The notes below the pieces were generated by a model. That model saw nothing but the letters and a program-made list of their open reading frames with translations, had not been told where the DNA came from and did no database searches. The position numbers and the translations under genes were made by a program. Shown here one piece after another: positions 5,365-5,760 of a DNA stretch of 7,425 nt (position 1 is the stretch's first letter; each line of letters starts with the position of its first letter). This DNA comes from a virus. Taxonomy: Duplodnaviria; Heunggongvirae; Uroviricota; Caudoviricetes. The stretch lies in the IMG/VR virus record IMGVR_UViG_2734482594_000019; one strand, 5' to 3'.

Positions 5365-5760
5365 CTAACCTCGCATGTCAAAGCCAGATTTCTGAAAATC
5401 TCTGTAGACTTCCGGATTGTTGAAGGCCGGAAATTTGGCTTTATGAGCTGCGGACTTTATCGCTTCGCAATAGGCTTTATCACCGTTACTGGTAGATATT
5501 TTTAACGCCGTGCCATCCTGAGAGAATTCCATATGCAACCTGCATTTTTTCCCTTTCCAGTTATGCGGCTCATCAAGTTTGGCATTAATTGCAGCTCTGA
5601 TTCCCCGCGCTTGCGCCCCCCATTCATCCTGATCATCCCAGCGTCCTGAACTGCAACTACCTGTAGCAGTAGTTTTGTGGCAATCTGAAGGGTGTAAAGG
5701 TGTGCATCCCGCAACAAAACCGACCCAAAAAGTCAACATAACGATTTTCTTTAATCCCAC
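5365..5760 (-). CDS. Lipoprotein with a TolA C-terminal (domain III)-like domain, 131 aa
   Basis: GTG start at 5760 preceded by SD GAGGAG (6-nt spacing). Signal peptide MGLKKIVMLTFWVGFVAGC with lipobox VAGC and Thr at +2. The C-terminus (GKKCRLHMEFSQDGTALKISTSNGDKAYCEAIKSAAHKAKFPAFNNPEVYRDFQKSGFD) aligns by eye with E. coli TolA domain III (GKTCTLRIKLAPDGMLLDIKPEGGDPALCQAALAAAKLAKIPKPPSQAVYEVFKNAPLD, recalled from memory). Confidence 0.7.
   Translation of the reverse strand: MGLKKIVMLTFWVGFVAGCTPLHPSDCHKTTATGSCSSGRWDDQDEWGAQARGIRAAINAKLDEPHNWKGKKCRLHMEFSQDGTALKISTSNGDKAYCEAIKSAAHKAKFPAFNNPEVYRDFQKSGFDMRG

Follow-up and report, generated by a model that had tools for sequence, protein, structure and literature searches.

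A prophage lipoprotein with a TolA domain III fold and its possible role as a competitor of host TolA

Exclusion lipoproteins such as Llp (phage T5), Cor (phages phi80, N15 and HK022) and TraT (the F plasmid) sit at the inner face of the outer membrane, where they block an entry route. Protection can also be engineered around the periplasmic protein TolA. Laboratory TolAIII (the free C-terminal domain III of TolA) and the phage protein g3p made inside the cell interrupt the contact between TolAIII and its ligands, which leads to tolerance to colicins and Ff phages. Levengood-Freyermuth et al. reportedly rendered E. coli tolerant to group A colicins in 1993 by over-producing periplasmic TolAIII, and Boeke, Model and Zinder are said to have expressed Ff phage g3p inside the cell in 1982. 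To our knowledge, tolerance by the TolAIII route has so far come only from tol mutations, laboratory TolAIII over-production and the phage's own g3p. Group A colicins and filamentous phages have TolA domain III as their common point of entry. Here, we describe a gene for a lipoprotein with this domain on a natural mobile element. It lies in IMG/VR record IMGVR_UViG_2734482594_000019, a 7,425-nucleotide (nt) stretch (hereafter, the window) that represents the late region of a Rac-like lambdoid E. coli prophage and in which every recognisable gene is on the minus strand. The features of the gene, which we call the target or paralogue B, are as follows.

5365-5760, minus strand: target lipoprotein gene with TolA domain III (paralogue B), from the open reading frame (ORF), Pfam, PDB sequence match and fold match
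5767-5772, minus strand: Shine-Dalgarno sequence GAGGAG, 6 nt before the GTG start, read from the sequence
5707-5760, minus strand: signal peptide, amino acids (aa) 1-18, MGLKKIVMLTFWVGFVAGC, from the sequence
5641-5706, minus strand: conserved N-terminal segment of the mature protein, aa 19-40, C-xPLHPxx-C27-HKTTATGS-C36-SSGR, from column entropy and dN/dS (ratio of nonsynonymous to synonymous substitution rates)
5368-5640, minus strand: TolA domain III fold, aa 41-131, with helices a1 (41-60), a2 (95-107) and a3 (116-122), strands b1 (72-79), b2 (85-93) and b3 (124-130), and the disulfide pair C73/C98

The first-pass annotation of the window, a reading of its letters and ORFs, had described the product as a lipoprotein whose C-terminus resembles TolA domain III, and had proposed profile and structure comparisons as checks. 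Both show clear TolAIII similarity, well above what chance would give, and the structural reading is right. The Pfam profile of the TolA C-terminal domain (PF06519; gathering score 25) matches residues 44-125 with 54.6 bits (E=1.3e-14), spanning profile positions 10-92 of 96. A phmmer search of PDB sequences returned E. coli TolAIII (1s62, 3qdp, 2x9a and 1tol) at E-values of ~5e-9, and its alignment reproduces the residue pattern that had been matched to TolA by eye. The two TolA cysteines, C363 and C388, are retained in the target as C73 and C98 and are invariant.

Fold comparison gave the same answer. An AlphaFold2 model of the target, built from a 50-sequence alignment, has a predicted local distance difference test score (pLDDT) above 90 over residues 41-131 and low confidence for residues 1-40. 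Foldseek superposed this model on E. coli TolAIII (3qdp) with a root-mean-square deviation of 1.1 Å over 85 columns (template modelling score, TM, 0.90; E=9e-9). The next ranks were taken by TolAIII chains from complexes with If1 g3p, colicin A and M13 g3p, with 2x9a the second-best match. The C-terminal domain of TonB has a fold homologous to that of TolAIII and likewise binds partners by beta-strand addition (PMC7391070), yet TonB C-terminal domains match the model far more weakly, by orders of magnitude (E of at least 1e-2 versus 9e-9 for TolAIII).

At the level of sequence, the target and host TolAIII are ~32% identical. Both edge strands (b2 and b3) are retained in the predicted fold. Edge strand b3 (SGFDMRG) is free of proline and keeps D128 at the position of TolA D418, and the chain stops one residue past b3, as it does in TolA. 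With TolA domain III (residues ~330-421; 3qdp, 1tol, 2x9a and 3qdr), the target therefore shares the fold, the disulfide and a three-stranded sheet with free b2 and b3 edges. It differs from TolA in having its predicted lipid anchor at the opposite end and in an extra conserved segment that contains cysteines.

The target thus holds a true TolA C-terminal domain but is no TolA. Transmembrane domain I, the part that contacts TolQ and TolR, is absent, the N-terminus being a cleavable lipoprotein signal peptide, and there is no Ala/Lys-rich helical domain II in a protein that measures 131 aa in all. The full-length TolA models of NCBIfam (NF007065 and TIGR02794) align only through their last ~80 positions, and their equivalog cut-offs are missed (53.7 bits versus 213, and 47.2 versus 59.45). 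Lacking domains I and II, the protein has no means of coupling to TolQR or to the proton-motive force and is unable to transduce energy.

The similarity to TolA is not in itself new, as the domain is already named in public annotation: RefSeq and RAST both call the product 'TolA C-terminal domain-containing protein'. The claim that no phage protein of this kind has been characterised agrees with the sources consulted. PHROG 5772 is labelled 'unknown function', the BFVD library of viral structures contained no protein with the target's fold, the defence-system search described below gave no match, and a full-text literature search found no study of the protein. Most literature matches to 'TolA' were author names (Tolar) or the host gene.

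The ORF encodes 131 aa between a GTG start codon and a TAG stop codon. RefSeq gives a different start: WP_001348108.1 (7166-7540 of the RefSeq copy L001) is a 124-aa product that begins at Met8 and so cuts off the Lys-Lys n-region of the signal peptide. We prefer the GTG, 21 nt 5′ of the Met8 start (window 5740-5760), because it is preceded by the GAGGAG Shine-Dalgarno sequence, in keeping with the first-pass assignment of a ribosome-binding site (RBS) of its own, and because plasmid homologues begin with an ATG at the aligned position. Copies on plasmids and chromosomes keep this RBS region, and the DNA homology among copies spans window positions 5790 to 5362. For the plasmid copies, RefSeq lengthens the product to 143 aa.

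The ORF sequence also confirms the lipoprotein signal. The lipobox VAGC occupies aa 16-19 and conforms to the pattern [LVI][ASTVI][GAS]C. Its putative lipidated residue, Cys19 (5704-5706), is kept in at least 90% of family sequences and is followed by Thr20 at position +2. Under the +2 rule, Asp at this position is the Lol-avoidance signal that retains a lipoprotein in the inner membrane. By this rule, the mature target should reside at the inner leaflet of the outer membrane.

Just 22 residues, aa 19-40, separate the lipid-bearing end from the globular domain. The first-pass annotation took residues 20-40 for a mere tether, a view that does not hold: few parts of the subfamily are as well conserved, and the segment is more than a tether. 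Its column entropy (0.31) is among the lowest in the subfamily, with a lower value only in the b1 core strand (0.26), and its dN/dS is 0.02-0.09. The segment contains two extra cysteines (C27 and C36) and has no counterpart in TolA. No homologue was found for aa 19-40, where AlphaFold confidence is low. A separate idea, a mimic of the TolB box, was rejected. The conserved stretch SSGRWDDQDEWG had been likened to the TolB-binding epitope of colicin E9, GASDGSGWSSENNPWG, a likeness that proved unsupported: the Trp-Trp spacing is off by one residue, W41-W47 belong to helix a1 in the AlphaFold model, and searching PDB sequences with this stretch gave no significant match.

A second TolAIII lipoprotein gene lies directly upstream.

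About 5911-6342, minus strand: paralogue A, a lipoprotein of ~142 aa, its middle masked in the window and its 3′ end (5911) inferred from the identical phage copy at 4422-4850 of L002

This paralogue was missed in the first pass, its TolA domain being masked in the window. The run of N at 5879-6143 conceals exactly that domain and is 3 nt longer than the corresponding stretch of phage mEp460_ev081 (L002, LR597641), in which the DNA flanking paralogue A is 99.7-100% identical to the window. In the phage, paralogue A is a 142-aa protein with a lipobox (IIGC), Thr at +2 and a PF06519 match at E=2.4e-23. Its last 82 aa are 61% identical to residues 340-421 of E. coli TolA, including the C-terminal LDFKP. 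The target and paralogue A share only 29% identity, and paralogue A has no counterpart of the target's conserved Cys segment.

The two genes form a fixed cassette in prophages. All 80 IMG/VR prophage loci have the order paralogue A, a 150-nt gap, the target, a gap of ~200 nt and a P21-type holin gene; at one locus paralogue A is split by a frameshift and at another it is cut short. The endolysin downstream of the cassette varies across these 80 loci, with at least four types. Conversely, 113 sequenced phages, Shiga toxin (Stx)-converting phages included, share the holin (84-94% DNA identity), and their homology to the window ends near the holin start; the Stx-converting phages with this holin carry unrelated DNA in the slot. 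The pair is therefore present or absent at a fixed position among holin-sharing phages and fills a cargo slot between Q and S. This agrees with the earlier placement of the gene between Q-side control and the lysis genes; it lies between the Q-side genes and the holin, in the cargo ('moron') position of a lambdoid prophage. A single GenBank phage, mEp460_ev081, carries both genes, and scans of viral contigs retrieved the same E. coli prophage cassette only, whether the query was the target or an alignment of TolA-like lipoproteins. Many RefSeq E. coli chromosomes match all 679 unmasked bases of window 5200-5900 at 100% identity, and 780 of 5426 complete E. coli genomes (~14%) carry this stretch at 99% identity or more. 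The following sites and neighbour frame the pair.

6372-6401, minus strand: sigma-70-like promoter sequence, TTGAGC-18 nt-TATAAT (10/12 matches), ~30 nt upstream of paralogue A, a pattern match only
5840-5868, minus strand: weaker promoter-like sequence, CTGACA-17 nt-TAAATT, in the gap between paralogue A and the target, a pattern match only
5222-5239, minus strand: terminator-like hairpin, a 7-bp stem with 5 G-C pairs followed by TTTTTATATTG, 126 nt past the target stop codon
4898-5170, minus strand: P21-type holin (pinholin S21 family), which regularly follows the gene pair, Pfam PF04971 at E=4.5e-35

The upstream site at 6372-6401 is a candidate promoter for the two-gene unit. By eye, the CTGACA of the weaker site also occurs upstream of the IncI plasmid copy. 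Seven promoter-like sites were found in total against 3.2 expected, all as consensus matches. The terminator that had been credited to the gene survives in softened form: a hairpin with a T-run does lie 126 nt past the stop codon, as a consensus match, and is best called terminator-like.

The target is also found well outside prophages. Some 615 plasmids in PLSDB carry a copy at 88% identity, paralogue A being absent from them. On conjugative plasmids of the IncI complex, the copy lies ~100 nt past the relaxase gene nikB in the same direction. The IncI1 query (5700-6500 of L004, 801 bp) is matched from end to end by plasmids of the pO157 type (L003), at 98.6% identity, and the match takes in the 3′ end of nikB. 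The retention of this nikB end beside the gene on the non-conjugative pO157 indicates descent from an IncI-type plasmid; the pO157 copy sits between the hok/psiA region and toxB. About 300 Klebsiella plasmids encode a different TolAIII lipoprotein of 144 aa, with lipobox ITAC, adjoining a gene for a thioredoxin-fold protein. In the example from the Klebsiella pneumoniae IncR plasmid CP110584 (L204:4217-5246), this neighbour is a secreted thioredoxin-fold protein with a CVYC motif, and it may be a dedicated disulfide-forming partner of the Klebsiella TolAIII lipoprotein.

A scan of chromosomes, with one genome per species, placed the target subfamily at 38 loci in Enterobacter, Citrobacter, Klebsiella, Raoultella, Pantoea, Serratia, Erwinia and other genera, and the ORF is intact across more than 30 species of Enterobacterales. 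The neighbourhoods of these loci are unrelated and not prophage-like, with three exceptions: L086 is a Shigella copy of the present prophage, and L087 and L088 are metagenome-bin contigs with the plasmid arrangement. DNA homology between the prophage copy and the plasmid or chromosomal copies is limited to the coding sequence plus ~30 nt upstream, and the mobile unit is therefore this single gene. Pairwise dN/dS of the mature protein is 0.04-0.16 at dS of 0.4-1.4, the 22 residues after the lipid Cys included. Such strong purifying selection implies that the target gene is functional. That it might instead be an inert fragment of a captured tolA hardly deserves credence: the 61% identity of paralogue A to the 3′ part of host tolA does suggest capture of a host gene, but the dN/dS of 0.04-0.16 at near-saturated dS contradicts a loss of function, as do the intact ORF in more than 30 species and the gain of a lipoprotein signal peptide and an RBS.

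The wider family extends the pattern. An exhaustive HMMER search returned 130 cluster representatives of the TolAIII family, most of them 105-175 aa long and most on contigs too short to show gene context. Among 68 short representatives, 49 have a lipobox, and none of these 49 has Asp at +2. Three representatives, including proteins P0161 and P0177, are lipoproteins in which a TonB C-terminal domain (PF03544) precedes TolAIII (PF06519). One such fusion (L206:6001-6630, GCA_018423075.1) is encoded by a lambdoid prophage, in whose nin region it sits between a P-like replication gene and NinG/Q. A scan of viral contigs with the TonB_C-TolA_C fusion gave no match.

From these observations we tentatively propose, with somewhat less than even confidence, that the target is an outer-membrane-anchored TolA competitor that makes its carrier tolerant to filamentous phages and to colicins that depend on Tol. 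As a free domain III, lipid-anchored at the inner face of the outer membrane and unlinked to the TolQR motor, it would compete with inner-membrane-anchored TolA for ligands that dock on TolAIII through beta-strand addition. In Tol-dependent (group A) colicins and related bacteriocins, these ligands would be the translocation domains, and in filamentous phages the N1 domain of g3p. Positioned where they emerge through the outer membrane, the lipoprotein would hold them in a dead-end complex, leaving the carrier cell tolerant to both kinds of invader. Two proteins, paralogue A near to host TolAIII and the divergent target, would plausibly let the prophage trap a broader set of ligands.

Colicins and phages exploit two hubs in the periplasm, TonB and TolA, and the I pili of IncI-complex plasmids are the receptor of phage If1; the structure 2x9a is the complex of If1 g3p-N1 with TolAIII. 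A decoy function is favoured because the gene rides on IncI-complex plasmids, whose pili serve If1, and in a prophage cargo slot, and because its relatives are fused to the TonB C-terminal domain. Such prophages and plasmids, pO157 among them, are elements that profit when their host is protected. The biochemistry of TolAIII is compatible with such a role. The TolB N-terminus, ColN and g3p-N1 each add a strand at TolAIII b3 (A415-K420), mainly through backbone hydrogen bonds, while ColA adds its strand at b2, on the other side of the sheet (PMC4339652; PMC7391070). Single prolines (D418P or K420P) abolish binding at b3 (PMC4339652; PMC7391070). Because b3 binding runs through the backbone, strand propensity would count for more than sequence. 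TolAIII is bound by ColN and g3p-N1 at ~1 uM but by TolB at ~40 uM (PMC4339652), so that a decoy present in moderate amount could trap the invaders and leave Tol-Pal working.

How does this compare with the described systems? The target shares with Llp, Cor and TraT the form of a small lipoprotein on a mobile element and, by prediction, a position at the inner face of the outer membrane. Those proteins, however, plug an outer-membrane receptor (FhuA or OmpA), whereas the target copies a periplasmic hub of the host; no relation of sequence or fold between the target and Llp, Cor or TraT was seen. By analogy with laboratory TolAIII and in-cell g3p, the same tolerance phenotype is predicted for the target. 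The laboratory cases are an artificial soluble fragment and a phage ligand, whereas the target is a natural, conserved host-side domain with a lipid anchor, found on prophages, plasmids and chromosomes.

Several points weigh against a decoy. At just ~32% identity to TolAIII, binding of E. coli-specific ligands is not assured. Uniformly strong purifying selection, which takes in the Cys segment, suits a conserved host partner better than an arms race, and the conservation of aa 19-40 is left unexplained. In Enterobacter and many other genera, the gene stands alone on the chromosome, surrounded by ordinary genes of metabolism and regulation and off mobile elements. PADLOC-DB 2.0 gave no match for the target or paralogue A at E≤0.1, and the literature searched yielded no expression data for a lysogen. 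Finally, a TolAIII decoy would bind the TolB N-terminus too, possibly to the harm of its carrier.

The first of the rival explanations is that the anchored TolAIII binds the N-terminus of host TolB, alters the mobilisation of TolB and Pal, and so tunes outer-membrane tethering, vesicle production or division; tolerance to colicins and phages would then be a side effect, as in tol mutants. We consider such a modulator of Tol-Pal unlikely, although it has points in its favour. TolB is the physiological partner of b3 (PMC4339652; PMC7391070), and a review states that changing TolB interactions with Pal or TolA could regulate vesicle production (PMC7391070). A conserved host partner would fit both the purifying selection and the solo chromosomal copies, and paralogue A retains the LDFKP terminus of TolA. 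On the other hand, the affinity of TolA for TolB is weak (40-200 uM), so a large effect would require high expression (PMC4339652; PMC7391070). Titration of TolB would lead to a leaky envelope, a costly outcome for a gene present in ~14% of E. coli genomes, and a TolB-specific role would not explain the TonB_C fusions.

Comparably improbable, in our judgement, is the re-use of the TolA/TonB fold as a module for some unrelated binding in the periplasm, to an outer-membrane protein, peptidoglycan or another lipoprotein, with the Cys segment as the main site and no link to colicins or phages. The far divergence from TolAIII (32% identity), the high conservation of residues 19-40 without a TolA counterpart and the unremarkable chromosomal contexts would all be expected under this explanation. 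It accounts poorly for a protein that retains the core of TolAIII together with its disulfide and a free edge strand at the C-terminus, and for a neighbouring paralogue A that is 61% identical to TolAIII and has no Cys segment. The recurrence of the family on prophages, on plasmids and in TonB_C fusions also speaks against it.

A role in lysis, in which a product of the late transcript would put Tol-Pal out of action and make the outer membrane easier to rupture, is very unlikely. The gene is downstream of the Q-side genes, and in each of the prophage copies examined the holin comes directly after it; the pair stays with the holin even where the endolysin type differs. Yet purifying selection also acts on plasmid and chromosomal copies that have no lysis genes beside them, a terminator-like site stands between target and holin, and promoter-like sites precede the pair. 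The same type of holin occurs in 113 phages that lack the pair, and the window encodes a full set of spanins, Rz/Rz1. We prefer the decoy function over modulation of Tol-Pal at the time of lysis because the gene is kept on plasmids and chromosomes without lysis genes and because of the TonB_C fusions.

In a broader proposal, which we advance with greater reserve and regard as rather doubtful, small outer-membrane lipoproteins made of free TolA and/or TonB C-terminal domains would be widespread and hitherto unrecognised 'hub decoys' on prophages, IncI-complex and other plasmids, and some Enterobacterales chromosomes. They would intercept colicins and other bacteriocins by their translocation domains, and pilus-specific filamentous phages by their g3p, short of the real energy transducers. 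The architecture, the tandem arrangement with paralogue A, the fusions of TonB and TolA domains and the occurrence on prophages, plasmids and chromosomes alike plausibly point to an undescribed protective principle.

Roughly every seventh complete E. coli genome encodes this natural, conserved TolAIII with a lipoprotein signal, and so do resistance plasmids of the IncI complex and pO157. Were the target a decoy, it would represent a new type of lysogenic or plasmid conversion. It could then affect competition by means of colicins in the gut, how useful colicins and pilus-specific phages are as antibacterial or anti-plasmid agents, and how typing by colicin sensitivity is interpreted. Hub decoys as a class would constitute a new principle of defence, in which a host target is mimicked, as opposed to blocking of a receptor or sensing of nucleic acids. 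Should the target instead tune TolB-Pal, no accessory regulator of the Tol-Pal machine would have been known before it.

The remaining genes of the window are given here in order along the minus strand.

7164-7376, minus strand: DUF1133 protein, C-terminus only
4401-4898, minus strand: phage lysozyme
3940-4416 and 3999-4184, minus strand: Rz with embedded Rz1
2345-3820, minus strand: trkG, a potassium transporter gene with 38% G+C
1419-2207, minus strand: ynaK, ParB-like
405-656, minus strand: fragment, called terminase small subunit in the identical RefSeq copy

Rfam and tRNA scans of the window gave no match, and at 46% G+C the target is not set apart from its flanks (47-48% for the lysis genes). 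The placement of trkG and ynaK between the spanin genes and the terminase fragment is as in the Rac prophage. In the RefSeq copy L001, insertion sequence (IS) elements disrupt the trkG/ynaK region; holin, lysozyme and Rz/Rz1 are intact in the window.

Two annotations found along the way bear on searches for genes of this region. In a 2024 transcriptome paper on enterohaemorrhagic E. coli (EHEC), the product of a prophage tail-fibre gene is presented as a membrane protein of TolA type (PMC11125564). It is a different gene from the target, and its identification with the target was rejected, as the supplement lists a tail-fibre protein (PMC11125564). In phage mEp460_ev081, the P21-type holin (5648-5863 of L002, LR597641) is annotated 'Phage tail fiber protein'. 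Either of these labels could mislead database searches. The lysis genes of the window (4401-5170, minus strand) resemble the pinholin and signal-anchor-release (SAR) endolysin pair of phage 21: the holin carries an MKSMDK dual-start motif, and the N-terminus of the lysozyme is hydrophobic and rich in Gly and Ala.

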